A stretch of DNA of 64,000 bases from an uncultured virus (IMG/VR IMGVR_UViG_2775506815_000003) (lineage: Duplodnaviria; Heunggongvirae; Uroviricota; Caudoviricetes), in the IMG/VR virus record IMGVR_UViG_2775506815_000003, positions 1 through 64,000 of that record, one strand, 5' to 3'. The stretch's first letter is position 1, and the number at the start of each line of letters is the position of its first letter. Positions 1 to 16,651 of the stretch are shown piece by piece. Position numbers and translations under genes: made by a program. Below the pieces are notes generated by a model that saw only the letters and a program-made list of their open reading frames with translations, did not search any database and was not told the DNA's origin.

Positions 1-1638
1 TTACTTTTTTCTAGAATCAGCTCCAAACATGACAATATTTATATCTTCTCCGTCCCATATGATTTTATCTACTACGGATCTTATTAAATTTCTTTTCTGA
101 ATTACATCTGAGGTATCTATCATATTAGCAAATTTAATTATTATATCATCAACGATATCTATATTATCTTCTTTAATATTATTAGATTCCCTTTTTTCTT
201 CTAATTCGAATAATCTTTCTTTTAAATTTGAATTCTTTTTATCCAGCTCATTAATTTGAACAATTATATATTTAGTAGCATTAGATTCTTGACCTTCTGA
301 TAAAGAACCTACTAAATTGGCTATGGCTTTATCATTATCATCTATATTGGCCTTTATTTCCTTTATTTCAGCGTCCAAACTGATTTTAGCACTACTTATA
401 CTAACCTTGTCCTTTTCTATCTTTCTGGAAAGGGTAGAGCCTTTATAGGATAGTTTTTTAATCTCATCTATGACAAGCTGGTCTAAATCATTACCTTTTA
501 TATTTTTTATATCACATTTTTCTCTTTTACTCTTTTCTTTCAGCTCACATATATAATAAAAAGCTTGAACACCGTCCTTATTAACACGTCCCATTTTTGG
601 TCGCATAAAACTACCACAATTACCGCACCTTAATATACCAGATAAAAGCGATTCTGAATTTTTAACTTTCCTGAAAGTTTTAGATTTATTCTTATTAATC
701 ATATTTTGCACCCTCACCCAATCTTTTCCTCTTATTATTCCTGGATGTTTGCCTACGGCTATAATCCATTCTGAGTTATCTCTTAGCCTATTTGTAGTAT
801 TTTTCTTTTGTACAGTCTTATTATATGCCATGATACCTTTTTTACCTGTAAACTTATTTGAATCAGCATATACCTCATAATCATTATCAATGAAGTAGTT
901 ATATGTATTTTCATCAGCTGTAGCATATACAGGATTAGTTAAAATAGATCTTAGTGAAAATCTAGTATAATTTTTGTTGTTTTTAGTTTTAATATTATTT
1001 TGTATACAAAATGTTTCTAACTGAGTTAATGAATCCAATTCTAAGAACTTCTCATATATTAGTTTCACAGTTTTTATCTCCTGAGCTATAGGAGTAAGCT
1101 TAAATAATTTTCTTTTTTTTGCATTATGATCTAGATAGACAATCTCCTGAGAATCGAAGCCAGTAGGAGTAGTTCCACCAAGCCATCTGCCAGTTTTGGC
1201 TAATTGCAGCATATTATCTCTAATCCTTTCTGCTATAGTCTCTCTTTCTAGTTGAGCAAATACACTGGCTATGTACATCATTGCACGACCCATAGGAGTG
1301 GATGTATCAAATTGTTCCTTAATAGATACAAAAGATATATCATTCTCATGAAGATCTTCTATAAGAGTAGAGAAGTCAGCTATGTTCCTACTGATTCTAT
1401 CCAGTCTATAGCATATTAATACATTAAATTTCTTAGCCTTAACATCACGCATCATAAGCTTAAACTGTGGTCTATCGGTATTACCACCTGAAAACCCTTC
1501 ATCTTCATATATGGTAATGTCATCATCAGTAGAATTAAAATGTCCATAAACATACTCTTTACATAATTGTATTTGATTTTCTATAGAATCACCACGAGTT
1601 GTGAATTTCGATTTACGAGAATAAATTGCTATTTTCAT
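1..1638 (-). CDS. Large serine recombinase (SpoIVCA-like integrase of element 1)
   Basis: AIYSRKS catalytic Ser, DEGFSGG, YRLDRISR, recombinase domain, LSGILRCGNCG zinc ribbon, coiled coil. Confidence 0.95.
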   Translation of the reverse strand: MKIAIYSRKSKFTTRGDSIENQIQLCKEYVYGHFNSTDDDITIYEDEGFSGGNTDRPQFKLMMRDVKAKKFNVLICYRLDRISRNIADFSTLIEDLHENDISFVSIKEQFDTSTPMGRAMMYIASVFAQLERETIAERIRDNMLQLAKTGRWLGGTTPTGFDSQEIVYLDHNAKKRKLFKLTPIAQEIKTVKLIYEKFLELDSLTQLETFCIQNNIKTKNNKNYTRFSLRSILTNPVYATADENTYNYFIDNDYEVYADSNKFTGKKGIMAYNKTVQKKNTTNRLRDNSEWIIAVGKHPGIIRGKDWVRVQNMINKNKSKTFRKVKNSESLLSGILRCGNCGSFMRPKMGRVNKDGVQAFYYICELKEKSKREKCDIKNIKGNDLDQLVIDEIKKLSYKGSTLSRKIEKDKVSISSAKISLDAEIKEIKANIDDNDKAIANLVGSLSEGQESNATKYIIVQINELDKKNSNLKERLFELEEKRESNNIKEDNIDIVDDIIIKFANMIDTSDVIQKRNLIRSVVDKIIWDGEDINIVMFGADSRKK

Positions 1639-1640
1639 TG

Positions 1641-1685
1641 AATCACCCCATTGGTATTTATATGTTTATTATATTGGAAAGTATG
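1641..1685 (-). promoter_or_regulatory. Putative sigmaE promoter and RBS of recombinase 1
   Basis: Minus strand TCATA-17 nt-CATATAAAT then GGGGTGA RBS; 38/39 identical to 58540-58578. Confidence 0.65.
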
Positions 1686-1877
1686 AAAAAAGAAAAGCTA
1701 TTGGCATGATTTGAGTTGTTGGTTTATTGATTTTAATTTTTCTATTTAATAGTTATAGGAACACTAGGTATTATTTTTATCATGAAGTATTCTTCCTAAT
1801 CCTGTAAGTTAATCTTCATTTAAAATAGTTATTTTCACTAAAACTGTATCAGTTTTTTCATTAATAGTCCCTCTTCA

Positions 1878-1905
1878 AAACATATGTTTGTATATTATTA
1901 TAGCA
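1878..1905 (-). promoter_or_regulatory. LexA-like palindrome next to an extended -10 facing the integrase
   Basis: AAACATATGTTT palindrome 1878-1889; minus-strand TGcTATAAT at 1897-1905. Confidence 0.45.
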
Positions 1906-2039
1906 TAAACAAGTTAGAATGTTGGTAAAAAAACATTTAGAGTATATATAAAAAACTAGTAAAATTTATGAAAATGAGTTATATTATATATAGTTGGACA
2001 TATAAATAAATTGATTTTAAAGTTTTTAGGAGTGGTTAT

Positions 2040-2606
2040 GTGCTTAAAGATAAGGATATTAGGACAATTTTGATAAAAGAAATCACTAAATCAAATCGAG
2101 GTAACGATTATAGACTTGTAGAAGAACTAGCTGTATGCGATGGAGATGCAAGGGTTGATATTGCTTTAATAAATGGCAAATTATGCGGATATGAAATAAA
2201 AAGTGATAGAGATACCTTGGGAAGATTACCTAAACAAGTTAAAGCATATAATAGAACGTTCGATATCATGACTATTGTTGTTGGTGAAAAGTATAGAGAA
2301 ATGATAGAAGAAAAAGTTCCAAGCTGGTGGGGAATAAAAGTTGCCTACAAAGATAATAGTAATAAAGTATATATTGAAAATATTAGGCCTGCATCTTTTA
2401 ATGATGACGTTGATGCTCGTTCTGTTCTGGAATTATTGTGGAGAGATGAAATTTTAGAGTTGTTAAAAAATAAAGGAATAAGAGGGCTATCTAATAAGAA
2501 TAGAAGAATGCTAAGAGATATAGCCATTGAAACTATACCTCCTAGCGAGATAAAAGAATATACAAGAGAAATTTTAAAGATTAGAGAAGACTGGAGAGCT
2601 GATTAA
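2040..2606 (+). CDS. sce7726-family protein (PD-(D/E)XK-like)
   Basis: EELAV..ARVDIA..GYEIKSDRDTLGRL..Q motif. Confidence 0.75.
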   Translation: MLKDKDIRTILIKEITKSNRGNDYRLVEELAVCDGDARVDIALINGKLCGYEIKSDRDTLGRLPKQVKAYNRTFDIMTIVVGEKYREMIEEKVPSWWGIKVAYKDNSNKVYIENIRPASFNDDVDARSVLELLWRDEILELLKNKGIRGLSNKNRRMLRDIAIETIPPSEIKEYTREILKIREDWRAD

Positions 2607-3585
2607 CTACAAAAGTTATATGATGATTGGTCCCAACTTTTCTCCAAGTAGATAAATTTCCGCACTTTTCAATTCCTTTAGAACATCTAGTGAAAATATA
2701 GTTATCACCCCAGGAAAAATCTTGTCCACTAAAATCTTTGAGATTTATTAATTTTTGGCAAAGAGAAACTACATTTTCTACATCTAGGCCACCTTTTTTC
2801 GTGGAATCTCCTCTGATAACAATAAATGAATCATTAGTTGAGTACCTAATGTTAAAGGCTGGGCTCATTCCAGGAATATATTCAAAAAAGCTAGGGTGGT
2901 TAATGCAATAATCAGAGTATTTCAGCTTAATATTATATCGCTTTTCCAAATAAAGCAATGAACTCCACAGTTGGTAGTCATAACGGCTAATGTGATGAAT
3001 CTCATATTTTCCGAAAGAGCTTAATGTTTTAGGAAAAGCACTACTTGATAAAATAATATTTCTAAAAGATTGTATTTCAGGTATGTCTGGTAGTAAGGCT
3101 TTTGCAACAATCTTTTTTTCTCCAAAATTATTTTCGTTAATTTCTCTTAAATCTATTATTAAGTCAATGTTGTTATAGCCGAACTCATCCTTTAGTTCCA
3201 TCAAACTACTGTCTAAATCATCTAAATCATCGCTGGTTATTCTAATTGCTATACCATTTTTTGAGTAATTATTAGCCTCTTTTATTGCATCTTTATTATC
3301 TGACAAGAATACTACTGGAATTACATATTTGGGGTCACATTGGCTTAGCAAATCAAAATATATTTCTCCACTATTTTCTTCATAAACTTCTGGTAAAATA
3401 TCAAAATAAAAATATCTGTTCTTCCAATTATTTAAAGAATCTTTGAGCTTAGAAAAATTAAAATCGGGCGTTATTTCTATTAATGGAACTATTTTATCTT
3501 TTATAGAATCTTCCAGTTCTTTTAAAGCTCCTTGTTCTCCTTGTTTCCATTTAAGAATAGGAATATAAGTAAAATTTGTTTTCAT
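2581..3585 (-). CDS. Beta-family / sce7725-like protein
   Basis: YIPILKWKQGE N-terminus, YSDY, IRYS, FSWGD, WRKVGTNHH C-terminus. Confidence 0.75.
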   Translation of the reverse strand: MKTNFTYIPILKWKQGEQGALKELEDSIKDKIVPLIEITPDFNFSKLKDSLNNWKNRYFYFDILPEVYEENSGEIYFDLLSQCDPKYVIPVVFLSDNKDAIKEANNYSKNGIAIRITSDDLDDLDSSLMELKDEFGYNNIDLIIDLREINENNFGEKKIVAKALLPDIPEIQSFRNIILSSSAFPKTLSSFGKYEIHHISRYDYQLWSSLLYLEKRYNIKLKYSDYCINHPSFFEYIPGMSPAFNIRYSTNDSFIVIRGDSTKKGGLDVENVVSLCQKLINLKDFSGQDFSWGDNYIFTRCSKGIEKCGNLSTWRKVGTNHHITFVVNQLSSLL

Positions 3586-3720
3586 AGTAATCCCCCTTAA
3601 GAAAATAATTATAAGTAATAGTTGACAATATAAACGATAATTAAAAATTTAATATAAACATATTTAATCATCTCCTTAATTTGATTTACTTAATATATAA
3701 GAAAAGCAATGGAGATAAAA

Positions 3721-3736
3721 GCTACCCAAAGGTAGC
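3721..3736 (-). terminator. Hairpin terminator
   Basis: GCTACC-caaa-GGTAGC followed by T run on minus strand. Confidence 0.5.
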
Positions 3737-3737
3737 T

Positions 3738-4187
3738 TTATATCCCTAATGCTTCTTTAGACTTAGATCCAAGAATACCATCTACAGTAAGTTTGTTATC
3801 CTTTTGGAACTTTTTAAGAGCTTCCTTACTTTTCTTTCCCATGATTCCATCAGCTTTACCGCAGTCATAACCTAACTCATTAAGCTTTTCCTGAGCTTTC
3901 TTTATATCTTCAGATTTAGTAGAACTGGAGCTTTTCTTTGATGATGTAGTAGGTTTTTTAGTAGAAGTTTTACTACTATAAGGACAAACTCCGTCTTTAT
4001 GTAAGTGTGCAGTATTTCCACCACAGTGGTAGTGATAGCTACCTAATCCACTTTTATTCTTATTGTCCTTATGCCCACCGCTAGAATCTGTTCTACCTGG
4101 ATGACCTATAACAATAGTAGAACTAAGCGATAAAGCGACTGCTAGTCCTAATGAAGCAATCTTTTTTGATGAAAATTTCTTTTTCAT
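3738..4187 (-). CDS. Secreted YHYH-motif protein with peptidoglycan-binding domain
   Basis: Signal peptide, HPGRTD..GGH..YHYHCGG, C-terminal ADGIMG..FQKDNKLTVDG. Confidence 0.85.
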   Translation of the reverse strand: MKKKFSSKKIASLGLAVALSLSSTIVIGHPGRTDSSGGHKDNKNKSGLGSYHYHCGGNTAHLHKDGVCPYSSKTSTKKPTTSSKKSSSSTKSEDIKKAQEKLNELGYDCGKADGIMGKKSKEALKKFQKDNKLTVDGILGSKSKEALGI

Positions 4188-5905
4188 TTGAAATTCCTCC
4201 TTTGTATTTTAAATAATTTATTTGTTATCCATGAACCAAGTTTAAAAGAAACAATTGCTATAAAAAATAGTAAAAGAAGACCGATAAATGCATTATCTAC
4301 TTTTATTGCTATGAAAAGCGATAATACAGCCCACAAAAAGAATGATATTGTTATTTTTAAAATAGGAAATGATATATTTAATTTTTTTTCTGAAGTGAGA
4401 TTTGTTTTTGTATAGCTAAGATCGTTTATATAATCAAAATAATGTAAGGAACCTATATCTTCTTTATTAATTAATACCTTTCTCGGTTTACTACCTTCAT
4501 ATCCGCCTACAATGCCTCTATCTTCCATTTCATCAACAATTCTTGCTGCCCTTGCATATCCAATCTTTAGCTTTCTTTGCAACAGCGAAATAGAAGCCTG
4601 TCCTTCTTCTATTACTAGATAAATTGCTTTTGGCAATAATTCATCTACATCATAAATAATATTTTCAACTTCAACTTCGTTTTGAATGTTTTCTACAATA
4701 TTATTTTCATGTTTATTTATAAAATGGTTTACTACTTTTTTAATTTCTTCATTACTAATAAAAGCTCCTTGGATTCTTATTGGCTTTAATTCTTTCATAG
4801 AATAGAATAACATATCGCCTTCATTTAAAAGTTTTTCAGCTCCAGCTGTATCAAGTATTATTCTAGAATCGGATTGAGAAAATACCCTAAAAGATATCCT
4901 TGAAGGAAAGCTATTTTTAAAAACATTTGCGATAGAGGGTATTTGTGTAGTTACTATTAAATAAATTCCTGCAGCTCTTGCCATTTGTGCTAACCTACAA
5001 ATGCAATTTTCAATCTCTTGAGCAGATACCATCATCAAATCAGCTAATTCATCTATAATGATAACTATCTTGGACAACTTTTCTTCCTCATTATTTTTAA
5101 ATTTTTCATTATAGGAAGTTATATCCCTTACATTGTTTTTTGTAAATAGTTTATATCTATTTTCCATTTCAGCAATAGCCCAATTAAGAGCGGAAACAGC
5201 TTTTTTTGGTTCAGTAACTACTGGTATTAATAAGTTAGGGATTCCATTATAAATACTCAATTCAACTACTTTAGTATCTATAAGTAAAAGTTTTACATCA
5301 TCTTGAGTAGGTCTATATAAAATACTAGTTATTAAAGCATGAATACAAATGCTTTTTCCAGTTCCAGTTGATCCAGCTATAAGAAGATGTGGCATTTCAT
5401 CTATACTTTTAATAATTATTTTTCCATTAGTGCTTTTTCCTAATACTAGAGGTATTTCAAAATTAGTATTTTTATATTCATCAGAGTTTAATATATCATG
5501 TAAAAAAACTAATTTTCTATCATAATTTTCAGAGTTACATGTAGTATCTAATGATAGCGTTATCATTTTTATTAATATATCCCTGTCCCATAATTCAACA
5601 TTATTTGCTTCAGATAGTTCTATAGCATTGGGAGTAAAATAATTATTTGTAACTACCATACATTTATTAGCCCGATAATAATTTTTTGCACCAATAATTT
5701 CTTGTATGGCGGAAATGCCTACAGTATTGCTATATCTTTTGGCCTGGATAACTGTTCTATCCTTATCCTTTGAAATAATTAAGTCTGCTCCATAGTCATT
5801 AGAGGCTGGGGTAATTTCTACTTCATATCCTAAATTTTTAAAAAGATTAAATAAATAATTTTCAAATTCTATACCAGATAGATTATCTATACATAGTTCA
5901 TCCAT
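4184..5905 (-). CDS. Mrr-like endonuclease fused to FtsK/SpoIIIE ATPase, gamma domain and C-terminal TM helices
   Basis: EFE..DYGADL..IQAKRY; PHLLIAGSTGTGKS; IIIDELADLM; SISLLQRKLKIGYARAAR; hydrophobic tail. Confidence 0.85.
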   Translation of the reverse strand: MDELCIDNLSGIEFENYLFNLFKNLGYEVEITPASNDYGADLIISKDKDRTVIQAKRYSNTVGISAIQEIIGAKNYYRANKCMVVTNNYFTPNAIELSEANNVELWDRDILIKMITLSLDTTCNSENYDRKLVFLHDILNSDEYKNTNFEIPLVLGKSTNGKIIIKSIDEMPHLLIAGSTGTGKSICIHALITSILYRPTQDDVKLLLIDTKVVELSIYNGIPNLLIPVVTEPKKAVSALNWAIAEMENRYKLFTKNNVRDITSYNEKFKNNEEEKLSKIVIIIDELADLMMVSAQEIENCICRLAQMARAAGIYLIVTTQIPSIANVFKNSFPSRISFRVFSQSDSRIILDTAGAEKLLNEGDMLFYSMKELKPIRIQGAFISNEEIKKVVNHFINKHENNIVENIQNEVEVENIIYDVDELLPKAIYLVIEEGQASISLLQRKLKIGYARAARIVDEMEDRGIVGGYEGSKPRKVLINKEDIGSLHYFDYINDLSYTKTNLTSEKKLNISFPILKITISFFLWAVLSLFIAIKVDNAFIGLLLLFFIAIVSFKLGSWITNKLFKIQRRNFK

Positions 5906-6391
5906 GGGAATCCTCCTTCAAGCGATTTATCTATGGAAATAATTATATTATGAAACCTTAGTAATATAATGTTATTTAAATTATGTGCTAAAACGAAACC
6001 AAATATCTTGAAACCCAATTGGTGTGATTAACTTCGCACCGATTTTTTATTGCCTATATGTAACAATGGCGAATAAGAGGCTTATATTACATATAACAGA
6101 TAAATATAAAATACATAGGAGGTAGAATAAATAAAAAATATATTAATGCACAACGCTTATTTACAAAGTTTAGATGTTTAACCTATGAAAATAATTACTA
6201 TAGTTTAAAAAAATATAGTAGGTAATTGAAAAATATTAATATTTATTATTAAGTTTTTGTAACAATACATAATATGGTAAGCCGGCATTTTAAGCCATTA
6301 CAGCTAGTAGCATTTTATATATATTATAATAACTAAATATATATTGTGTTTAACTAATAAATATAAAAAAATGGACCTACAAGGCGCATGG

Positions 6392-6420
6392 TTGACACGT
6401 TTGTAGTATCGTGGTATTAT
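6392..6420 (+). promoter_or_regulatory. sigmaA promoter overlapped by inverted repeat
   Basis: TTGACA-17-TATTAT; CTACAAGGCG/CGTTTGTAG arms flank the -35. Confidence 0.55.
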
Positions 6421-6482
6421 ATCTATAATGTAAAAAACATTACATACAATTTATGATTAAGAAAATAAAAATATAATATCTA

Positions 6483-6530
6483 TTGCATACAGAACAGATG
6501 TTTGCTATAATATATTTAAACATACGTTCG
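6483..6530 (+). promoter_or_regulatory. sigmaA promoter with two LexA (SOS) boxes
   Basis: TTGCAT-17-TATAAT; GAACAGATGTTT in spacer; AAACATACGTTCG at 6518-6530. Confidence 0.75.
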
Positions 6531-6565
6531 CCACTGATTACTTACATAAAAAGGGGGTCCTGCTA

Positions 6566-6706
6566 GTGGTGGAGGATACAGAGTACATAAAGAATTTAAA
6601 CATCATGCAAAGAGCATTTAAAGATAAAAACAATAAAGAAATAGAACGACTGATAAATTTTATAGCCGATGAAGAAGCTAAACTTATTAAAAATAAAAGC
6701 AGTTAA
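6566..6706 (+). CDS. 46-aa SOS-regulated protein, candidate antirepressor
   Basis: AAGGGGG RBS, GTG start, convergent with repressor; below ORF-track cutoff. Confidence 0.6.
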   Translation: MVEDTEYIKNLNIMQRAFKDKNNKEIERLINFIADEEAKLIKNKSS

Positions 6707-6715
6707 CTTATATGG

Positions 6716-7198
6716 TTAATTGCTTTTACTATTATTATCATTATTATTTAATAGTTCTTGTATTTTAATATGTTTGGCTATTATTTCAGCTAGTTCCTCA
6801 TATGTTTTGTTCTCGTAATTAAACCCTTTATTAATCATTACTTGTCTAAATTCATCTAAGGCTTTATATTCTTTTTGAAACTCTTTTTTCAGTTTTTCTT
6901 CTTGCTTGTAAGTATTTCTTATACTAGAGTTTTCTAAGTTTTTTTTGTTAAATTCTGATTCAATATCTTCATCTTTTATATATCCTGCAGCTTTCATAAA
7001 GTCTGTGTAAGTTACATTATTTTTAGCAGTACTAGCTAATCCTTTTAATATTTCTGGGGAAGGAGGATTATCCATTTTGTTATTTAGTAATTTAGATATA
7101 TAAGTTCTGTTAACTCCACTTAGTTTGGAGTATTCAGTAGTGTTTAAGTCCCCCATAGCCTGTAATAATAATTCTTTAAAAAGTTCTTTGTCAAACAT
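6716..7198 (-). CDS. CI-like XRE HTH repressor
   Basis: N-terminal HTH (SGVNRTYISKLLN..PSPEILKGLA), divergent from cro; no S24 peptidase domain. Confidence 0.8.
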   Translation of the reverse strand: MFDKELFKELLLQAMGDLNTTEYSKLSGVNRTYISKLLNNKMDNPPSPEILKGLASTAKNNVTYTDFMKAAGYIKDEDIESEFNKKNLENSSIRNTYKQEEKLKKEFQKEYKALDEFRQVMINKGFNYENKTYEELAEIIAKHIKIQELLNNNDNNSKSN

Positions 7199-7232
7199 AT
7201 AAACCCCTCCTAAATAGTATTTTATACATAAG

Positions 7233-7347
7233 CGTGAAAATATTCAACACATCACTACGTAAAATCTTTTCACGCAATTCCGTGAAAATAGTTGACAGCA
7301 TTAAAATCGAATGATATTATGTATATACAGGGTGAAAAAAGTTAACA
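7233..7347. promoter_or_regulatory. Lysis/lysogeny switch: 17-bp operators and early promoter
   Basis: cGTGAAAA.....ACa-type boxes at 7233, 7258 (inverted), 7281, 7331; TTGACA(7292)-17-TATTAT(7315). Confidence 0.8.
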
Positions 7348-7361
7348 AAAGGAGGATGATT

Positions 7362-7625
7362 ATGATACCAAATATAGAAAAATTGCAACAACTTGTTGAT
7401 AAAAAGTTTAATGGAAACAAGTCGGCTTTTGCTAAAGCTATTGGGATTGAAAGGTCACACATATCTCATATATTAAAAGATGGAACTGGGGCAGGTGCAA
7501 TGTTTTTTGGAGCATTGATGCAGTATTGTGAGAAAGAAAATTTAAAATTTAAAGATTATATTTTTCTACCAACAAATGTGAATAAAATTAACGATAGAAA
7601 CCAAGGTAACAACCATACAGCCTAA
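7362..7625 (+). CDS. Cro-like HTH regulator
   Basis: FAKAIGIERSHISHIL HTH; AGGAGG RBS supports start at 7362. Confidence 0.75.
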   Translation: MIPNIEKLQQLVDKKFNGNKSAFAKAIGIERSHISHILKDGTGAGAMFFGALMQYCEKENLKFKDYIFLPTNVNKINDRNQGNNHTA

Positions 7626-7746
7626 TAATTATCTCACATAAGTAGATTCAAAAAAAGAAGTAAATATTGGAAGGAGTAAGATAGGTGGAAGAATACTACC
7701 TTATAGCTTTCATACAAAATTGTGTAAAACACGCAGTAACCAAGTA

Positions 7747-7775
7747 ATAGGACAAATTAATTAATTCATATAAAT
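7747..7775 (+). promoter_or_regulatory. Putative sigmaE promoter with SpoIIID-like site
   Basis: ATA-17-CATATAAAT (same -10 as both recombinases); TAGGACAAA overlapping the -35. Confidence 0.55.
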
Positions 7776-7797
7776 ATTATGAAAGGAGTGGGGAGTT

Positions 7798-7977
7798 TTG
7801 AATATTACAGTTCACTTACCAACAACTAAAGAAGGATGGCAAATGCTAAACGAAAGAATGGCAGAGATACATTCAGAATTTATAATAAACCAAATAAACA
7901 ATCTCCCCTGTAGTTATGAAGAGAAGTTAGAAATCTTAGAAGGGGTTAAGAAGAGAGTAGAGGAGGAGGGAGTGTGA
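7798..7977 (+). CDS. 59-aa protein, candidate recombination directionality factor
   Basis: MNITVHLPTTKEGWQMLNERMAEIH...; AAAGGAG RBS, TTG start; function inferred from promoter. Confidence 0.6.
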   Translation: MNITVHLPTTKEGWQMLNERMAEIHSEFIINQINNLPCSYEEKLEILEGVKKRVEEEGV

Positions 7978-8252
7978 TGGATAAAACAATGATAGTGAGT
8001 AATTTAGAAATTCTTAGCAATTATATTAAAAAGGATATTGAACATACAAATACGAGTATAGAGCATTGGAAAAAGCGTGTTGAAGAAATTGGAGAGGGTA
8101 CTATAGCATTTCCAATTGAAAATGAAACCTATGGAGAAACATTAGATAGAAGTATAGAGAATAAAAAGTATCTTATGAAACTCCTTGAGGATAACAACAA
8201 TTTGATAAATACGTTAAGGAAAGGAGAGAAAGGAAGAGATGAAACAGATTAG
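7974..8252 (+). CDS. Hypothetical phage protein
   Basis: ORF with RBS in early operon. Confidence 0.6.
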   Translation: MMDKTMIVSNLEILSNYIKKDIEHTNTSIEHWKKRVEEIGEGTIAFPIENETYGETLDRSIENKKYLMKLLEDNNNLINTLRKGEKGRDETD

Positions 8253-8355
8253 ATTGGTAGCTTTTACTTGCAAAGCTAAAGATTTACCTTCCAGACTAGA
8301 AGAAGAATTGAAGAAGGTAGAAAGGAAATTAAAACAATCTAAAAAATCAGCTTAA
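8239..8355 (+). CDS. Small hypothetical protein (38 aa)
   Basis: MKQIRLVAFTCKAK..., purine-rich RBS, overlaps upstream ORF. Confidence 0.45.
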   Translation: MKQIRLVAFTCKAKDLPSRLEEELKKVERKLKQSKKSA

Positions 8356-8426
8356 ATATTTATCTATCTACTTTAATTGTATATCCTAATTGACTTATAA
8401 ACAATGAATTGTAATGCAAGAAAGAG

Positions 8427-8960
8427 GTGAAAAAGATGTTCAAAGATGCACGATTAAAAACTGGATTAACAATCGAAGAGGCAGCGGCAAAAACTTATGT
8501 AAGTCCAAGAGCTTTGATAAATTACGAGCAAGAAAATACTACACCTGGTCCAGATGTAGCACTACAAATGAGTAAGGTTTATAAAGACCCTTGGTTAACT
8601 CAAAGGTATTGCAAAGATTGTTGTGCAATAGGACGAGCATACTCATATGAGATATTAGATAATGTTAATTTAGATCCTGCAAGTGTAATGCTTAAACTAG
8701 TTGGAGAAATGAAAGAAGCCCAAGATGTGTTAAACAATATGTTAGCTTTAGCAGTAAATAAAAATGAAAGAGAAGATTTCAAAGAGTGTGAATGGGAGGA
8801 ATTTGTTAGATATTTACATGAATTTTTAGATGTAGAACATAACGTAGAAATATTAAAGATATCACTAAATAAATGGTGTGACATGGCTGAGTTGATAGCC
8901 GAACATAATCAGAAATGTAAGTTAAGAGGGTATGTAGGAGGTGAAGTAAGTGAAAGATGA
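8427..8960 (+). CDS. XRE HTH phage regulator
   Basis: FKDARLKTGLTIEEAA..RALINYEQ. Confidence 0.75.
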   Translation: MKKMFKDARLKTGLTIEEAAAKTYVSPRALINYEQENTTPGPDVALQMSKVYKDPWLTQRYCKDCCAIGRAYSYEILDNVNLDPASVMLKLVGEMKEAQDVLNNMLALAVNKNEREDFKECEWEEFVRYLHEFLDVEHNVEILKISLNKWCDMAELIAEHNQKCKLRGYVGGEVSER

Positions 8961-9249
8961 TACGGTTTTAGACTTAAGATACAACATAGCAGCCTTGTAT
9001 ATAGCAATTTTAAAGGAAGGCATAGCAACACCAGAGCAGGCATTTGCGGTTGTCTCCAATACATCAGTTATAAAAGCCACTACAGATGAAGATGTGAAAG
9101 ACATGATAGCAATGAGAAATCAAGGACTAACTTATAAACAAATAGCTGAAATATATGGTTCAACAGATTCAAATATATATCACAGAATTGAATATAAAAA
9201 AAGACCTTTCAGCCACCAACTGAAAAGGTCGAAAACAAAAACTATTTAA
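8950..9249 (+). CDS. Small HTH DNA-binding protein
   Basis: GLTYKQIAEIYG motif. Confidence 0.6.
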   Translation: MKDDTVLDLRYNIAALYIAILKEGIATPEQAFAVVSNTSVIKATTDEDVKDMIAMRNQGLTYKQIAEIYGSTDSNIYHRIEYKKRPFSHQLKRSKTKTI

Positions 9250-9281
9250 CTTATTATACCACATTGAAAGGAGAATAAAAG

Positions 9282-9485
9282 ATGGATGCTATCGGAATAT
9301 ATATAAATCATGTAAATCAATCTAAAACAGGGATTGAAAAGGAAATGTATTATCTAATTGAGCAAAATATGGAACTAGAAAGAATTTTAAGAGAAGCGAA
9401 AGAAGCTGAGAGGAAATTAAATAAAAACAAAGAGAGGTTTATGGAGTTAGCAGTACAGTATGCGAATATGAAGGGAGATATATAA
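9282..9485 (+). CDS. Hypothetical coiled-coil protein
   Basis: ORF with AAAGGAG RBS. Confidence 0.55.
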   Translation: MDAIGIYINHVNQSKTGIEKEMYYLIEQNMELERILREAKEAERKLNKNKERFMELAVQYANMKGDI

Positions 9486-9971
9486 ATGCTTAAATTGTAT
9501 GAGTTAACGGAAATGTATAGGAATATTCAAGAGTTAATAAGTGATGATGATGTAGATGTTAAATCTTTAGAAAATGCACTAAGTCAAATTGAAGGTGACA
9601 TCAATTCTAAGGCTGAGAACATAGCTAAATTGATTAGAGGCATGGATGGAGATATAGAAGCATTAAAAACCGAAGAAAAGAGATTAACAGATAGAAGAAA
9701 GGCTTTAGAGAATAAAAAGAACGGGATTAAGAATTATTTAGAAATGCAATTAAAAGCCATGGAAATTGATAAAGTTAAAACTCCATTGTTTACAGTATCA
9801 ATACAAAACAATCCTCCAAGTGTTGACGTAATAAATGAAGAACTTATTCCGAAAGAGTTTACAAAAACGACAACAACAGTATCAAGAAAAGATATTCTAG
9901 AAGCTTTGAAGAATGGAGAAGAAGTTCCGGGAGTAGAGTTGAAACAAACTAAATCATTAAGAATTAGATAG
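9486..9971 (+). CDS. Siphovirus Gp157-family protein
   Basis: KLYEL N-terminus, NNPPSV, GEEVPG..SLRIR C-terminus. Confidence 0.85.
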   Translation: MLKLYELTEMYRNIQELISDDDVDVKSLENALSQIEGDINSKAENIAKLIRGMDGDIEALKTEEKRLTDRRKALENKKNGIKNYLEMQLKAMEIDKVKTPLFTVSIQNNPPSVDVINEELIPKEFTKTTTTVSRKDILEALKNGEEVPGVELKQTKSLRIR

Positions 9972-9983
9972 GAGGGTTTTGAT

Positions 9984-10880
9984 ATGACTAATAAGATAGC
10001 AAATAAAAATAATAGTATCGCACAAAATCATACAGTTAAATCTTTATTAAATATTGAAGGATATCAAAAAAGGTTTAGAGAGGTATTAGGGAGTAGAGCA
10101 CCTCAGTTTATGAGTAGCATTATAAGTGCAGTAAACAGTAATGCAGCACTAGGAGAATGTGAACCAAATACAGTTATTCAATCGGCATTAAAAGCAGCAA
10201 TATTAGATTTGCCCATAGAAGATAATTTCGGATTTGCATATTTAGTGCCTTATTACAATAGTAAAAAAGGATATAAAGAATGTCAATTTCAACTAGGATA
10301 TAAAGGTTGTATTCAACTGGCTTTAAGGACAGGCATGTATAGAAACATTAATGTAATAGACGTAAGAGAAGGAGAACTGAAAAGTTGGAATCCTCTTACA
10401 GAGGAGCTAGAAGTTGAATTTATCGTAGATGAAAAAGAAAGAGAAAGTAAAGGAGTATTAGGATATGCAGGGTATTTTTCTTTGTTAAATGGATTTGAGA
10501 AAAAAGTTTACTGGACTGTAGAAAGTTTATTAAATCATGCTACGAAATATTCTGCTCAATATAGAAAATATAAATCAGGAATGTGGTCGGACAACTTAGA
10601 TGATATGTGTAAAAAAACTGTAATTAAAAACATGATAAACAAATGGGGAATTCTATCAGTAGAAATGCAAACACCAAATCAGCAATTATTAGAAGCTATA
10701 AAAGCAGACCAAGCGGTAATAAGAAATGAGAATGAATACGACTATGTAGATAATGATCTAGGAGAAATAGTCGAAGCAGAAGTTGAGATAGAGGATAGCA
10801 CCGACGTTAATGATGATTTAGCAGATAATCCAGATTTACCATGGAATAACTCAGATGATGAAGATAATAAATCATTTTAG
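9984..10880 (+). CDS. recT: RecT-family single-strand annealing protein
   Basis: GFAYLVPY, QFQLGYKG.IQLALR, MCKKTV; acidic tail. Confidence 0.9.
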   Translation: MTNKIANKNNSIAQNHTVKSLLNIEGYQKRFREVLGSRAPQFMSSIISAVNSNAALGECEPNTVIQSALKAAILDLPIEDNFGFAYLVPYYNSKKGYKECQFQLGYKGCIQLALRTGMYRNINVIDVREGELKSWNPLTEELEVEFIVDEKERESKGVLGYAGYFSLLNGFEKKVYWTVESLLNHATKYSAQYRKYKSGMWSDNLDDMCKKTVIKNMINKWGILSVEMQTPNQQLLEAIKADQAVIRNENEYDYVDNDLGEIVEAEVEIEDSTDVNDDLADNPDLPWNNSDDEDNKSF

Positions 10881-10915
10881 ACTAGGAGCTTTATGCTCCT
10901 GGTCCTTATAAGTAG

Positions 10916-11176
10916 GTGATGTTTTTGGGTGAATGGATTAGTAAGGAAAAGAGATTAAGAATTTATAAAAGAGATAAATTTAGATGTAGATATTGTGGAA
11001 AGAAGTTAATACATGGGCAATTAAGTTTAGATCATGTAATTCCTAAAAGTAGGGGAGGCACAAATAAATATGAAAATTTGGTTACTTCTTGTGCCCAATG
11101 CCAATGGAGAAAACAAAATATGTTTTTAGAAGAAGTAGGAATGGAGATAATTGAATTGCGAAAGTTAGGTGATTAG
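10916..11176 (+). CDS. HNH endonuclease
   Basis: RD.F.CRYCG..LDHVIPKSRGG..NLVTSC..C. Confidence 0.85.
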   Translation: MMFLGEWISKEKRLRIYKRDKFRCRYCGKKLIHGQLSLDHVIPKSRGGTNKYENLVTSCAQCQWRKQNMFLEEVGMEIIELRKLGD

Positions 11177-12193
11177 ATGCCTGATAATGAAATATTAAAA
11201 GCTGAATTAGAAGATGGATACGGCAGGGTAGCAAACTTATTACTTGAGGCTCTTGCAATGTCAAAATTAAATGGAAAACAAATGAGTATATGTCTATTTA
11301 TTATTAGGAGGACATATTCATGGGGAAAGAAATCAGATGAAATAACTTTAAAAGACTTTGCTTTAGCTTGTGATAGTTCTGAAACCTATATGTCAAAACA
11401 GATAAAACAATTAATTAAATGGAAAGTTGTTTTAAGAAAAAATTATAGTCCAGGTAAGGTTCCAGAGTATGAAATAAACACAAGGGTTGACGAATGGGAC
11501 AAGGGTTGTCTAAACGTTCAAGGGTTAAATGAAAATGTAGTAAACAACACATATATAAGCTCAACCCTTAAACAAAAAGACAAGGGTTGTCTGAATGAAC
11601 AAGGGTTGAACGAAAGTATAAGACAAGGGTTGAACAATCAGGCAAGAGTACCCTTGAACGAAAGGACAAGGGTTGTCCAAGGTCAAAGCTTTGAAAATAC
11701 TGACGTTAAATGGTGTCTTAAAGAAAGTAGTAAAGAAAGTATAAAGAAAGATACTACTACTACAGAAGAGGAACAGTCAAAAACTGGAAACGAAGTTAAT
11801 CCTGTCGCCGATATAGGTGCCGATCCTATACAACAGGATGAGAGTAAAAGAGAATCAGATTTACAGAAGATAGAAGATTACTATAAACGAGAGGTTAGAA
11901 AGAAAGTACTTGTTAGTAATAATGATATGATTGGCATTACTCATGCCTATGATAAATACAAGGATGTAGATTTTATTATATCCGTAATGGAAAGAGCTAA
12001 GCAAGATAACATAAAAAGAAATGGAAGTTGTAAGATTAATTCATTTAACTATTTTGAACAGATTTTTGAAGAAGAATGGGAAAGAAAACATGCGAAAAAG
12101 GAGGCTATCAAAGATGGACCAACTTCAACAAGTAGCAGAAAGAATTTTAAATTCGATAAAAGCCAATTCCTCTGGAACAGAGGAGAAAGTTAA
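11177..12193 (+). CDS. Phage replication initiator (lambda O-like)
   Basis: KAELEDGY.RVAN.LLEAL..RRTYSW.K; internal iterons. Confidence 0.85.
   Translation: MPDNEILKAELEDGYGRVANLLLEALAMSKLNGKQMSICLFIIRRTYSWGKKSDEITLKDFALACDSSETYMSKQIKQLIKWKVVLRKNYSPGKVPEYEINTRVDEWDKGCLNVQGLNENVVNNTYISSTLKQKDKGCLNEQGLNESIRQGLNNQARVPLNERTRVVQGQSFENTDVKWCLKESSKESIKKDTTTTEEEQSKTGNEVNPVADIGADPIQQDESKRESDLQKIEDYYKREVRKKVLVSNNDMIGITHAYDKYKDVDFIISVMERAKQDNIKRNGSCKINSFNYFEQIFEEEWERKHAKKEAIKDGPTSTSSRKNFKFDKSQFLWNRGES
11481..11675. repeat. Replication origin iterons
   Basis: CAAGGGTT at 11481, 11500, 11519, 11581, 11600, 11624, 11667; inverted copies near 11561 and 11650. Confidence 0.85.
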
Positions 12194-12917
12194 ATATGAA
12201 TGCGAGATATGCAAAGACAAAGAATGGATTGATATACGTGATGAAGATGGACTAATAACTTCATCTATGCCTTGTAAATGTAGAGAAGTTAAGCTATATA
12301 AAAGAATACTTGAATCATCAGGAATAACTGAGGCTTTCTTAGAAAGAAACTTTGGAAACTTCAAACCTAAAAATCAAGCTATCGCAAATGCTAAAGCAAT
12401 GGCTATAGATTACGTTAAAAAGTTTGATAAAGTGAAGAATTCTAAAAATAACTCAATAGCCTTTGTAGGACAAGTAGGTGCTGGAAAAACACATCTAAGC
12501 ATAGCAATAGCAAATGAATTGATGAAAAGAAATATTGGAGTTAGATATATGCAGTATAGAGAAGATATAACGAGAATTAAACAAGTTGCAGCAGATGAAG
12601 AAAGCTATGCTAGGGAGATAAACAAATATAAAAATGCAACGGTATTACTCATAGATGATTTATACAAAAATGCCACTTATAAAACTAGATCAGGCTATGA
12701 AATTTTAAATGATGCAGATAAAAGAGCTATGTTTGAAATAATAAATTACAGATATTTTAAGAATGCTCCAATCATAATTTCAAGTGAATATTTAGCCGAA
12801 GATATATTGAGCTTTGATGAAGGCATTGGAAGTAGAATATTTGAAATGTGTAAAGGCTACATTATGGAATTCAAGGGGCAAGAACTTAACTATAGACTTT
12901 ATAAACAAGCCTTATAG
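12114..12917 (+). CDS. DnaC/IstB-like helicase loader ATPase
   Basis: CxxC..C.C, GQVGAGKTHL, LLIDDL; AGGAGG supports start 12114. Confidence 0.9.
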   Translation: MDQLQQVAERILNSIKANSSGTEEKVKYECEICKDKEWIDIRDEDGLITSSMPCKCREVKLYKRILESSGITEAFLERNFGNFKPKNQAIANAKAMAIDYVKKFDKVKNSKNNSIAFVGQVGAGKTHLSIAIANELMKRNIGVRYMQYREDITRIKQVAADEESYAREINKYKNATVLLIDDLYKNATYKTRSGYEILNDADKRAMFEIINYRYFKNAPIIISSEYLAEDILSFDEGIGSRIFEMCKGYIMEFKGQELNYRLYKQAL

Positions 12918-12927
12918 GAGGGATAAC

Positions 12928-13083
12928 GTGAAGCTTTGTTATAAATGCAATAGCCGAATGGTAGAAGTTAAACTAATAGATTTAAGAGGTAAGTCGTACC
13001 GAGCCTTAGTATGCACCTATTGTGGACATACCTATAGCAAGGATAAAGCTTTTAAAGGGAAGTTACAACTTAGAGCAGGATAA
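12928..13083 (+). CDS. Small zinc-ribbon protein
   Basis: CYKC..CTYC; AGGAGG RBS before GTG. Confidence 0.55.
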   Translation: MKLCYKCNSRMVEVKLIDLRGKSYRALVCTYCGHTYSKDKAFKGKLQLRAG

Positions 13084-13310
13084 GGAGGCATAAAGATGTC
13101 AAAGAGCTGCATTGACTGCAATAAAAGATATCCTGGTTGTCATAGCAAATGTAAAGCATATACAGAATACAGTCAACAAATGGAGAGAGAAAAGAGTGTA
13201 GGAGGAAGTGGATCATGAAAAGATGGAAGAAGTGGAAAAAGCTAATTAGAGGGACTTTACTCAGAGAATATATATTCATCAGTATTTTTTCAAGATAAGG
13301 AGAGATATAC

Positions 13311-13826
13311 ATGGGTTATCACAAGGGAGATGGATTTGAAGAGATAATAAACTTAGCAAATTTATCGTATAAAAGAAAAGAGATAGCATTAGTACAGAAG
13401 ATAGCAACACCAATGAAGCCAATTAGAAGGGGAAAGCAAATAGTATCAGCATACTATGAAGAAAAAAGTACACTAGACTACATAGGAATATATGGAGGAG
13501 TACCTATAGCTTTCGATGCAAAAGAAACCAAAGAAGAAACAAGGTTTCCTTTAAACAATGTTCAGCTACATCAAATTAAGTTTATGAAAGAATGGGACAA
13601 ACATGGAGGAATAACATTCTTACTCATATATTTTACTAAACTAGGAGCAGTGTATAGGCTTGATTGGACAACTTTGGACTGGTACTGGAATAGGTATCAA
13701 GAAAATAGAGGTAAAAGAGGATATGGAAGTATACCACTAAATGAATTTGAATGTAATTGTAAGCAATTAAAATCAAGAGATGGAATTATATTAGATTACC
13801 TGGAGGGGATAGAAAATGTCAAATAA
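13311..13826 (+). CDS. recU: RecU Holliday junction resolvase
   Basis: G..FE..IN, STLDYIG, FDAKET, HQI. Confidence 0.9.
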   Translation: MGYHKGDGFEEIINLANLSYKRKEIALVQKIATPMKPIRRGKQIVSAYYEEKSTLDYIGIYGGVPIAFDAKETKEETRFPLNNVQLHQIKFMKEWDKHGGITFLLIYFTKLGAVYRLDWTTLDWYWNRYQENRGKRGYGSIPLNEFECNCKQLKSRDGIILDYLEGIENVK

Positions 13827-14448
13827 GCTTCAAATAATTAATGAGAATACAGGAGAGATTCTTGAAGAACAAAAATTCACAGGAGGATATCATGTAATTT
13901 ACACTAACTTAGAGGACATGGGCAAGTTAAGACATATAAGAAAATTAGATAATGCTAAATTTGGAGACAAGCACTGGATTAAAAACTGGATATATAGACC
14001 TATAGCTGAGAAATTAGTAAAAAGATTTCCAGAGTTAAAGCATATTAAACCTAAAAATATATTGTTTATAGAAGATATGGAATGGGAAAAGCCAGATAGC
14101 TTAAAACCTAAAAAACATTGGATGGCTAAAATATCAAAAGCTAATCAACAATTTTCAGCAATGAGTGGATACGACTATATTCTAGAAACTAGGAGTTATT
14201 TTATTGAAAGGATGGCCAGAGAGCAAATTATAGCACTTATCTATCATGAGCTTAGACATATTGACGAGTGGGGAGATTTACAACCTCACGATATAGAAGA
14301 TTGGGATAACATGGTCGCAACATTAGGCAAGGATTGGGTTGAAACTTCGGCAGAAATTAAGAACTTAATTAAAGATGATATATTTTGGAGACAGTTGGAG
14401 CCAGCTGCTAAACAGTTAGATATGTTTGAAATAAAGGCAGTAAAGTAA
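13816..14448 (+). CDS. Putative phage metallopeptidase
   Basis: LIYHELRHI..PHDIEDW. Confidence 0.7.
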   Translation: MSNKLQIINENTGEILEEQKFTGGYHVIYTNLEDMGKLRHIRKLDNAKFGDKHWIKNWIYRPIAEKLVKRFPELKHIKPKNILFIEDMEWEKPDSLKPKKHWMAKISKANQQFSAMSGYDYILETRSYFIERMAREQIIALIYHELRHIDEWGDLQPHDIEDWDNMVATLGKDWVETSAEIKNLIKDDIFWRQLEPAAKQLDMFEIKAVK

Positions 14449-14465
14449 AATGGGAGGGTCAAATT

Positions 14466-15854
14466 ATGATTAAACTAGTTAGTATAGATAAAATAAAAAA
14501 TCATCCTGAGAATCCACGAAAAGATTTAGGAGATTTAACGGAATTGGCAGATAGTATAAAACAGAATGGAATACTACAGAACCTAACTATAGTGCCATAC
14601 GAAGATGGACACTGCGGATCCTGTAAACATGACAATCCACAGACGGGGTGGTGCAAGATAGACCATCAGGGAGGAGTACCTTGCACAGGATGGGAAAGTA
14701 AAGGTGTATATACAGTAGTGATCGGACATAGAAGATTAGCTGCAGCTAAGAAAGCAGGATTAACAGAAGTCCCATGTTCCATAGCTGACATGGACTATAA
14801 AACACAAATTGGCACAATGCTTGCAGAAAATATGCAACGATCTGATTTAACAGTATATGAGCAAGCTCAAGGGTTTCAGATGATGATGGACCTTGGTGAA
14901 ACAGTATCAAGTATTTCTGAGGAAACGGGGTTTTCAGAAAGTACGGTCCGTAGAAGAATGAAACTCCTTGAGTTGGATCAGGAGAAATTGAAAAAAACAA
15001 TGGGCCGTGGTGCAACTCTTTCTGATTATGTTGAACTTGAAAAAATTGAGGACATAGAGGTAAGGAACCAAGTACTTGAAAAAATAGGAACTAATGATTT
15101 TGATTGGACATTAAGAAGAGCCATAAATGAAGAACAGAGAAAGAAAAAGCTCAATGAGATACTTTTAGAAGTAAAAAAATTTGCTACTGAAACAAAAGAT
15201 ACATCTAGATTGGAATATGAAACTGCATACTGGGGAAGGCCTAGTGAAAAATTCACAATACCTGAAAATGTAGATGAAGTAGAGTATTTTTATGAAATTA
15301 AGCACGATTATATTTATCTTTATTATAAAAGTCCAGAAAGTGAGGATTTGGATAAAAGAAAAGAGGAAAGAGAGAAATTAAGGAAGGAAAAACATTTAAA
15401 ACTTGAGAATCTAACTGAAATAGCATATGAGTTAAGGCGAGGATTTATAAAAAACATTTCCAATACTAAGGCAAGAAAGAACATGAATACAATAATAGAA
15501 GGTACTCTATATACCATGGCGGAGAGTTACTACAGCCTTAATTATGAAGAAATGGCAGATATCATGGACATAGATATAAGTGATAAAGAAAATATAGAAT
15601 GGAAAGATATAGCAGGGGATATATGGAAGCAGCCGGAGTTATATCTATTAAAATCTACTTACTATATACTCGATAACCCTAGCGAAAACTATTTCAACTG
15701 GAATTGTGAATATAGACCAAATGAAAGTCTTGATTATGTGTATGACTTTCTTAAGAAATTAGGATATAAAATGTCTGATGAAGAGATAGCACTTCAAAAC
15801 GGTACACATGAGGTGTTTGTAGATATTGAATGGCCCACAGATAAAAAATATTAG
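14466..15854 (+). CDS. ParB/Spo0J-family protein
   Basis: NPRKDLGDL.ELA.SI..GILQ, GHRRLAAA, ENMQRSDL, HTH. Confidence 0.9.
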   Translation: MIKLVSIDKIKNHPENPRKDLGDLTELADSIKQNGILQNLTIVPYEDGHCGSCKHDNPQTGWCKIDHQGGVPCTGWESKGVYTVVIGHRRLAAAKKAGLTEVPCSIADMDYKTQIGTMLAENMQRSDLTVYEQAQGFQMMMDLGETVSSISEETGFSESTVRRRMKLLELDQEKLKKTMGRGATLSDYVELEKIEDIEVRNQVLEKIGTNDFDWTLRRAINEEQRKKKLNEILLEVKKFATETKDTSRLEYETAYWGRPSEKFTIPENVDEVEYFYEIKHDYIYLYYKSPESEDLDKRKEEREKLRKEKHLKLENLTEIAYELRRGFIKNISNTKARKNMNTIIEGTLYTMAESYYSLNYEEMADIMDIDISDKENIEWKDIAGDIWKQPELYLLKSTYYILDNPSENYFNWNCEYRPNESLDYVYDFLKKLGYKMSDEEIALQNGTHEVFVDIEWPTDKKY

Positions 15855-15866
15855 GGGGATAGATTT

Positions 15867-16010
15867 ATGAAATGTGAGGAAGAAGTTGCTAAATACTGTA
15901 TGCAGGCAGTAAAGTATAAAAAATATGCGAAGGTAAGAAAGTGCAATAAGTGTTGCTTCTACTGTAAGGTTAGATGTGACAATGTGTGTGAAAAAGCATT
16001 GGAGGGATAA
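15867..16010 (+). CDS. Small Cys-rich protein (47 aa)
   Basis: KCNKCCFYCKVRCDNVC; AGGGG RBS. Confidence 0.5.
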   Translation: MKCEEEVAKYCMQAVKYKKYAKVRKCNKCCFYCKVRCDNVCEKALEG

Positions 16011-16456: not shown

Positions 16457-16458
16457 AA

Positions 16459-16650: not shown

Positions 16651-16651
16651 T

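Follow-up and report, generated by a model that had tools for sequence, protein, structure and literature searches.

Two related prophages in one sigK gene carry unrelated integrase genes behind a near-identical putative expression cassette

The stretch of DNA that we analysed (64,000 nucleotides, hereafter the window) belongs to a genome from which an intact sigK gene is absent. With the curated model TIGR02846, three pieces of the gene were found on one strand. The first piece, corresponding to model positions 14-115, ends just left of the window (G000:C14:378641-378935), the second (model positions 106-151) is at about 56.82-56.95 kb of the window, and the third (model positions 138-226) is about 19.5 kb past its right end (G000:C14:462420-462683). 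Their translations read ...TYAARCIEN, EILMTIRANKKSKIEVSLQEPIGVDKEGNE and ISLLDILGSEMDD..., respectively. An ambiguous base (N) is present in the coding 5' end of sigK, at about 378.64 kb of G000:C14, and the true start codon is thus not fixed. In a genome of the same genus (G017) sigK is intact, with a score of 364 bits against a cut-off of 298.65, and the three pieces align end to end on this gene, which gave the exact junctions; relatives are contiguous across each of the two insertion sites, which are 93 bp apart. The three pieces aligned on the intact gene bear out that both excisions are needed to rebuild sigK: precise excision of both elements is predicted to restore an open frame colinear with intact orthologues. 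The genes spoIVA, spoIIIAA, spoIIID, spoIID, spoIIM and yqfD are all present in the genome, which points to a spore-former needing both excisions.

The two insertions, E1 and E2, are both of phage origin (Table 1). E1 is bounded by two copies of AATG, the right-junction core being at 56832-56835, and its PHROG annotation runs from regulators through terminase, portal, capsid and tape measure to holin and endolysin. E2, 26,538 bp in total and bounded by two copies of AATGAA, retains a repressor/cro switch, a DnaB-type helicase and other phage genes, plus IS110 copies. Inside the window it contains an IS110-family transposase split into two ORFs (DEDD_Tnp_IS110 and Transposase_20) and IS3-type HTH fragments (59405-60662 and 61530-62226), which are signs of decay. 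At the outer ends of the elements, inverted-repeat arms lie around a central dinucleotide within the common core (the symmetry was judged by eye), as would be expected for serine-recombinase attP sites. Both insertion cores fall in AATGAAAT(A) repeats encoding N-E-I.

Some further features of the elements were recorded. A cargo block between rec1 and the E1 repressor (1981-5905) contains the phrog_984 gene and genes for a Beta_protein (PF14350), a PG_binding_1 protein and a fusion of Mrr_cat nuclease, FtsK/SpoIIIE ATPase and FtsK_gamma, and it looks like a defence or accessory island. Three consecutive tail-region genes (46017-52894) have repeated C-terminal modules (phrog_15809 three times; direct repeats D1-D3, D9 and D18), which suggests duplicated receptor-binding domains. 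In E2, an ORF for a hydrophobic peptide of about 45 residues (MKELICTTLL...; 58795-58931), preceded by a strong RBS, is located 5' of rec2 on the opposite strand.

Each element has its own large serine recombinase gene adjoining its left junction, and the stop codon of rec1 is 27 nt from the 5' piece of sigK. Both products have the Pfam trio Resolvase, Recombinase and Zn_ribbon_recom and, as the first-pass annotation had stated, they are very different despite the common sequence upstream, with 22% identity over 501 aligned positions. Relatives at E<=1e-60 were sought in an order-level sample of 401 genomes, and were found in 40 genomes for rec1 and in 25 for rec2; only the genome described here has both types together. 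When the identity to rec1 is at least 54% and flanking DNA is available, all 11 loci (L043-L053; L071 has no flanking DNA and was left out) adjoin a sigK 5' piece that ends at site 1. The same holds for L054, which is 51% identical to rec1, and no sigK was found in the flanks of L056 and L057 (also 51%) or of any rec1 locus of lower identity. Rec2-type loci with at least 62% identity, our own included, adjoin a sigK piece ending at site 2 in six cases out of six, and relatives with at most 47% identity in none of 22. This distribution suggests that each recombinase family owns one sigK site. Minimal elements of 2.4-3 kb are present in G004, G022 and G092; that of G022 (L049) is of the rec1 type and its recombinase frame holds one TAA, while that of G092 (L051), of the same type, has about 410 bp besides the recombinase.

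Table 1. Features of the two elements, positions being those of the window unless another contig is given
Feature	Position	Strand	Description
E1	1..56835		complete siphovirus-type prophage, 56,863 bp, starts 27 nt left of the window
rec1	1..1638	-	545-aa large serine recombinase, E1 integrase
Cassette copy 1	1635..1697	-	39-mer at 1641-1679, 5' of rec1
Copy 1 RBS	1642-1649	-	GGGGTGAT
Copy 1 CATA-type box	1655-1664	-	CATATAAATA
Copy 1 TATAAT	1668-1673	-
Copy 1 candidate -35	1680-1686	-	TCATACT, with ATA
Cargo gene	1981..2606	+	188 aa, phrog_984, divergent from rec1
E1/E2 patch	5996-6639		72%
E1 candidate RDF	7747..7977	+	59-aa ORF at 7798-7974
Putative promoter of E1 RDF-like gene	7747-7776	+	ATAGGACAAA (7747-7756), N10, CATATAAATA (7767-7776)
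E1/E2 patch	8216-8354		88%
E1/E2 patch	8812-9276		473 bp, 84%
E1/E2 patch	17309-18498		1,191 bp, 90%
sigK middle piece	56832..56924	+	93 bp, 31 codons (…NEILMTIRANKKSKIEVSLQEPIGVDKEGNE), between E1 and E2
E2, left part	56925..64000		decayed prophage, about 19.4 kb more beyond the window; IS110 and IS3 fragments and TPR/Sel1 gene inside the window
rec2	56990..58537	-	515-aa large serine recombinase, E2 integrase
Cassette copy 2	58534..58596	-	39-mer at 58540-58578, 5' of rec2
Copy 2 RBS	58541-58548	-	GAGGTGAT
Copy 2 CATA-type box	58554-58563	-	CATATAAATA
Copy 2 TATAAT	58567-58572	-
Copy 2 candidate -35	within 58575-58583	-	CAATATT, with ATA
E2 candidate RDF	L152:4975-5202		outside the window

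A pattern search of the window for the 39-mer gave exactly two matches on the + strand, identical at 38 of 39 positions and differing at a single C/T position, and this was as the first-pass annotation had described. No match is expected on the basis of 100 shuffles, and a search of the whole genome (3,568,817 bp) for the 31-nt core with up to three mismatches returned just two sites, both in the window. A weaker likeness of the two copies reaches 63 nt (84%), the 24 nt flanking the 39-nt core being about 62% identical between E1 and E2. Both 39-mers are directly 5' of a minus-strand large serine recombinase gene, and their minus strand holds CATATAAAT(A) and the RBS in both copies, again as claimed. 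A perfect TATAAT, absent from the earlier description, has its first base 35 nt from the ATG in both of them. No part of the window reached the gathering score of an Rfam family, and the folding z-scores of the two leaders (0.16 and -0.03) correspond to structure not beyond that of shuffled controls. We consider, with good confidence, that the 39-mer is the central part of the segment from which the recombinase gene takes its promoter, leader and RBS. It may also be observed that two 39-bp direct repeats 56.9 kb apart could recombine, deleting the body of E1, the sigK middle piece and rec2; such a deletion would leave sigK unrepairable, and the duplicated repeat would therefore be a liability rather than an obvious benefit.

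The 39-mer was also sought before other sigK-associated recombinases, a check that the first-pass annotation had proposed, and was found at some rec1-type genes only. In the family of 25 genomes the cassette, with three mismatches, occurs in two others, G015 and G016; in G015 it is 5' of a rec1-type gene 79% identical to ours and matches at 34/39 positions. In G016 (L014), as in L147, it persists before rec1-type genes that are internally or almost wholly deleted, remnants of former elements. The cassette of G064 matches at 35/39 although the recombinase protein is just 51% identical, those of G125 and G189 contain indels, and two viral contigs, of 81 and 52 kb, bear a copy of the G064 type. 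All the copies outside this genome (G015, G016, G064 and the viral contigs) are of the rec1 type. The closest rec1 relatives, G011 (83%) and G024 (79%), are without the cassette (19-21/39, which is background), and so are the closest rec2 relatives, G003 and G004 (74-75% identity; 21/39 ungapped, also background). Since G011 and G024 have other upstream sequences, members of the rec1 family can do without the cassette. Among 185,579 reference genomes the 18-nt core matched 76 times, and three of these matches have the extended cassette, two of them at rec1-type genes beside sigK and one in a remnant; the remaining 73 have no recombinase or sigK nearby and a likeness limited to the 18-mer. When metagenomes were scanned with the RBS and first codons as the anchor, five matches were obtained, and as three of them were of one cassette type, the new diversity was too little for a conservation analysis. 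When the eight distinct copies were aligned, the E1 and E2 copies differed from each other at 1 of 39 positions and from every other copy at 3-10, and they had in common three derived states unseen in the other six. By this alignment they are each other's closest relatives, that is, sister sequences, and the cassette appears to be rare and tied to prophage-borne recombinases of the rec1 type, with rec2 of this genome as the single exception. A second type of cassette, TTACAn, N16/17, TGCTATAAT, precedes the rec1-family genes L046, L062, L064, L071 and L072, and in four of these five (not L071) there is a near-perfect palindrome, AAACATATGTTT, just 5' of the RBS.

The comparison of E1 with E2 by BLASTN revealed ten colinear patches in the same orientation at E<=1e-6, four of which are given in Table 1. 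The leftmost patch is the cassette, and it stops at the recombinase start codon. Apart from the cassette core, which is 97% identical, the patches have 72-90% identity. As the patch ends at the start codon, one integrase ORF appears to have been replaced by another while the cassette before it was kept, and the simplest reading would be a common backbone with a swap of the integrase ORF at the gene boundary. The identity of the core (38/39) is higher than that of any other patch (<=90%), and therefore shared descent alone may not suffice; in fact, at 90% identity one mismatch or fewer in 39 nt has a probability of about 9%, by simple arithmetic. Besides shared descent, one would need the signals to be under purifying selection, a short conversion to have occurred recently, or both.

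A small gene is found at the same place in E1 and E2, after the repressor/cro switch and flanked by homologous patches. The 59-aa ORF of E1 is a homologue, 64% identical, of the 65-aa ORF of the G022 minimal element, and E2 contains a 76-aa, 55%-identical homologue of the 63-aa ORF of the minimal rec2-type element of G004. Neither small-ORF family has a Pfam or PHROG match, and no BLASTP similarity was found between the two. Considering that the place is the same and the flanks are homologous but the proteins are dissimilar, this module was apparently swapped too. The rec1-type family counts 19 homologues, none of them named; of the 12 genomes that have a rec1-type gene associated with sigK, 9 contain it, as compared to one weak hit in the other 389, and in eight of these nine it shares a contig with the recombinase gene, 0.2-7.8 kb away from the 5' end of the latter. 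The rec2-type family is present in all six genomes with a sigK-associated rec2-type gene and in two more with distant rec2-like genes. This co-occurrence with the recombinase families makes the small ORFs candidate recombination directionality factors (RDFs). The G092 minimal element lacks an RDF-like ORF of its own in cis, although a small ORF related to the family is present on another contig, and no skr-like ORF overlapping the 5' end of rec1 or rec2 was found.

The sequences upstream of these RDF-like genes are conserved. At all nine rec1-type loci we found ATAGGACAA(A/T), N10, (C/A)ATAT(A/T)(A/T)(A/T)(T/G)A, and at seven of nine rec2-type loci ATAGTACAA, N11 and a CATAAAT-like box. The SpoIIID site has the consensus GGACAA. 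Both designs consist of a sigmaE-type -35 ATA, a box similar to this site and a mother-cell -10, a layout like that mapped for the C. difficile RDF gene CD1234 (Table S7, PMC3789822). To judge from these motifs, the clearest mother-cell signals of the locus are the putative sigmaE/SpoIIID-type promoters of the RDF-like genes and not the cassette.

As regards the sigma factor that might read the cassette, its invariant feature is TATAAT, present in 8/8 copies at 34-35 nt from the ATG. Among 48 non-redundant recombinase upstream regions, 9 have TATAAT at -37 to -33, as compared to 3.3% of 2,668 genes of this genome, and the geometry matches that of the mapped constitutive sigmaA promoter of C. 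difficile CD1231, as given in the accessible part of its description. Moreover, E1 is a complete temperate prophage, and its integrase must therefore work in vegetative cells. The best sigmaA -35 in each of the eight copies has only 2-3 matching bases out of 6, a TG extension is present in none, and in neither copy of this genome is the TATAAT picked up by a generic sigma-70 consensus scan. On balance, we give some sigmaA-type activity of the cassette a little better than an even chance.

In B. subtilis, the -10 element recognized by sigmaE is CATACAHT. Both copies of the cassette have a -10 of this CATA type, CATATAAATA, a 10-mer that recurs unchanged as the -10 of the E1 RDF-like gene, and in CATATAAA the eighth base is A and not T, as in spoIVA and spoIIIAA of this genome. 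The C. difficile sigmaE -10 is CATATTAT or CATATAAT, and A at the eighth base also occurs in some of its mapped promoters (Table S7, PMC3789822). A -35 ATA falls within the usual spacing of 15-18 nt, at 17 nt in E1 (TCATACT) and 15 nt in E2 (CAATATT), which are the distances reported in the first-pass annotation; an ATA at a permitted distance is also found by chance in 46 of the 178 genes with a CATA box (about 26%). E2 reads CAATATT-N13-CATATAAAT, with the same spacing as spoIVA and spoIIIAA here, which read (T/G)CATATT, N13, CATAT(A/T)TAT. The strict pattern ATA-N15-17-CATATWWAT occurs 90 times in the genome and precedes only 13 genes, including spoIVA, spoIIIAA, the E1 RDF-like gene, rec1 and rec2, three of the 13 being hits by construction because the pattern was built partly on spoIVA, spoIIIAA and the RDF gene; our sigmaE patterns were derived from this genome and not from the 47 mapped C. 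difficile promoters (PMC3789822, Table S7). It is also present before the phrog_984 cargo gene (1981-2007). These findings favour the idea that the cassette is chiefly a sigmaE promoter of the mother cell, with or without SpoIIID, and that both recombinases are induced together in sporulation. The idea gains from the native rec2-type promoters, which have CATATAAT or CATA(A/C)AAT boxes, mostly with a correctly spaced ATA (in the non-redundant sigK-associated rec2-type genes, a CATA box 19-30 nt from the start in 4/4 and an ATA at 15-17 nt in 3/4), from the enrichment of the CATA box in recombinase upstream regions (12/48 vs. 2.8% background), from the G092 minimal element, which has no ORF longer than 38 aa besides the recombinase, and from B. 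subtilis spoIVCA, whose dependence on sigmaE and SpoIIID, noted in the first-pass annotation, agrees with the accessible text of two papers (PMC5025042, PMC6957869). On the other hand, an ATA at 13-19 nt is absent from all six copies of other genomes, whose -10 ends differently, in ...AAC or a variant (four CATATAAC, one AATATAAC and one CATATACA), the predicted start would fall at the RBS and give a leader of about 12 nt, the RDF-like genes have much better conserved promoters of this kind, and the C. difficile precedent, in the available part of its description (PMC5025042), makes sigmaE dependence of a recombinase unnecessary. Of the sigmaE-like promoter first proposed, the pattern is thus real in this genome, but it is the TATAAT that is invariant. 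We regard a cassette that is chiefly sigmaE-dependent as possible, with the balance against it, and a sigmaE-dependent component in this genome as plausible, at or somewhat below an even chance; the sigmaA and sigmaE readings are not mutually exclusive. A true dual promoter, in which a sigmaA -10 would serve lysogeny while the mother-cell -10 had undergone a derived C-to-A change and each copy had its ATA placed independently, seems rather unlikely.

The near-identity of the two copies might also be due to a recent short gene conversion or recombination between the co-resident E1 and E2, and not to ancestry retained in a common backbone. The drop from 97% in the core to the values of the other patches and of the flanking 24 nt, together with the three derived states, would be explained in this way, and E2 retains before its ATG the TTT of rec2-type genes, as in G003. 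However, a tract of 39 nt is very short, purifying selection on promoter and RBS in an old patch would give the same picture, and neither donor nor recipient can be told from the sequences, so that we consider a conversion only tentatively, as an account that is more probably wrong than right. It is improbable that the block is conserved mainly as an operator, bound by a protein of phage or host such as a repressor, the RDF or SpoIIID, rather than as a core promoter. AAACATAT does recur in the second cassette type as the palindrome AAACATATGTTT, 3' of a textbook TTACAn-N16/17-TGCTATAAT promoter, and two ATATAA(A)T repeats can be read in the block one helical turn apart, but the cassette has no dyad symmetry, the SpoIIID-like box GGACAA of the RDF genes is absent from it, and no partner protein was identified. 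Finally, a chance match, a dispersed repeat or a part of an att site can be practically discounted, as nothing except the AT-richness of the 39-mer speaks for any of them. The first was rejected because zero matches are expected, and the third because the cores AATG and AATGAA with their inverted-repeat arms are elsewhere, at the sigK junctions. The dispersed repeat, which the first-pass annotation had named as an outcome contrary to its reading, was rejected because the genome has two copies and 73 of the 76 reference matches share the 18-mer only.

The explanation that we prefer, and hold as a whole to be probable, is that two related mosaic prophages with different site-specific recombination modules inserted 93 bp apart in sigK, and that the 39-mer is the core of an expression cassette just 5' of the integrase gene in sigK-targeting temperate phages. 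Each prophage would pair its own recombinase with its own small RDF-like gene, and both recombinases would be transcribed and translated from essentially the same signals. TATAAT, as a sigmaA-type element, would give basal expression of the recombinases, and the overlapping ATA...CATATAAATA may add sigmaE-dependent expression in this genome; the mother-cell timing of both excisions would derive mainly from the sigmaE/SpoIIID-type promoters of the RDF-like genes. That the cassette is an active promoter is what we infer from its motifs, and the poor -35 and the TATAAT uncalled by the sigma-70 scan count against it, as do, for the explanation in general, the closest rec1 relatives without the cassette (G011 and G024) and an identity of 38/39 that exceeds that of any other patch. 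In the first-pass annotation, a shared or exchanged regulatory cassette was thought to synchronise both excisions. The part about a cassette shared by two sigK-associated recombinases holds, and the sharing is better explained by mosaic kinship than by selection for synchrony.

The arrangement recalls skinCd of C. difficile, with the recombinase CD1231 and the RDF CD1234, in which, according to the accessible portion of Serrano et al. (2016; PMC5025042), a constitutive recombinase is combined with a sigmaE-controlled RDF. In both cases a sigK-intervening element has a large serine recombinase at its edge, the recombinase gene is behind a TATAAT with a short leader (the mapped start of CD1231 is 21 bp from the start codon; PMC5025042, same portion), and a separate small gene has a sigmaE/SpoIIID-type promoter. 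In particular, the CD1234 promoter, GTATAAGACAAG...CATATTTT (Table S7, PMC3789822), may be compared with ATAGGACAAA...CATATAAATA of the E1 RDF-like gene. Unlike skinCd as described there, two elements are present in one gene here and the recombinases adjoin the upstream sigK piece; moreover, CD1231 is without a sigmaE consensus, whereas the cassette copies of this genome fit a sigmaE-type pattern by sequence. With the skin element of B. subtilis (SpoIVCA and Skr) our elements share a recombinase, a small RDF, here a candidate, and an excision in the mother cell that rebuilds sigK, which in our case is predicted. In the available text on that system (PMC6957869), the sigmaE/SpoIIID promoter is more than 200 bp 5' of spoIVCA and skr overlaps the 5' end of spoIVCA, whereas here the cassette falls inside the last 60 nt before the ATG, and the RDF-like gene belongs to the early operon, at a distance of 6-11 kb. 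SPbeta, with SprA and SprB, has a vegetative integrase promoter and a sporulation promoter for an RDF located in a phage operon, and its recombination units can be swapped between elements, as far as the consulted parts of Abe et al. (2014, PMC4191935) and Suzuki et al. (2020, PMC6957869) go; the exchange was engineered there, while here the swap of integrase and RDF-like gene is apparently natural and the prophages are stacked in one gene.

A survey of skin elements in Firmicutes (Galperin et al., 10.1101/2022.02.25.481979) describes, in its accessible text, elements of 2.6-48 kb or more with a SpoIVCA-like recombinase at the edge, some of which are full prophages, and includes members of the Tissierellia; in all of those described there sigK is split into two fragments, as compared to three here. 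Prophages in sigK are also recorded, in the parts of the articles available to us, for C. tetani and C. perfringens (PMC5553647, PMC3442830). In the literature searched, the sources being partly accessible, we found no sporulation gene split by two elements (the supplementary Table S7 of Galperin et al. may list cases), no two related prophages with different recombinase families 93 bp apart, no common recombinase expression cassette at a module boundary and no report of the two RDF-like families with their conserved promoters. Skin-type elements, a large serine recombinase with a small RDF, sigmaE/SpoIIID control of the RDF and exchangeable recombination units are all of known kinds.

Excisable elements in sporulation genes are a textbook case of developmentally programmed DNA rearrangement. 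One sigma-factor gene that needs two independent excisions by unrelated recombinases would be a natural system for studying how such rearrangements are coordinated, be it by shared recombinase signals, by parallel sigmaE/SpoIIID-type promoters on the two RDF candidates, or by both. Should the dual promoter be true, two unrelated recombinases would be co-induced in the mother cell of an organism whose sigK needs two independent excisions. The locus also brings to light two candidate RDF families that are new and have conserved promoters, and it presents in natural sequence what was earlier demonstrated by engineering, the exchange of integrase and RDF modules, here apparently at gene boundaries. 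If this is correct, related phages that swap these modules while keeping the cassette would be able to occupy adjacent sites of one developmental gene.
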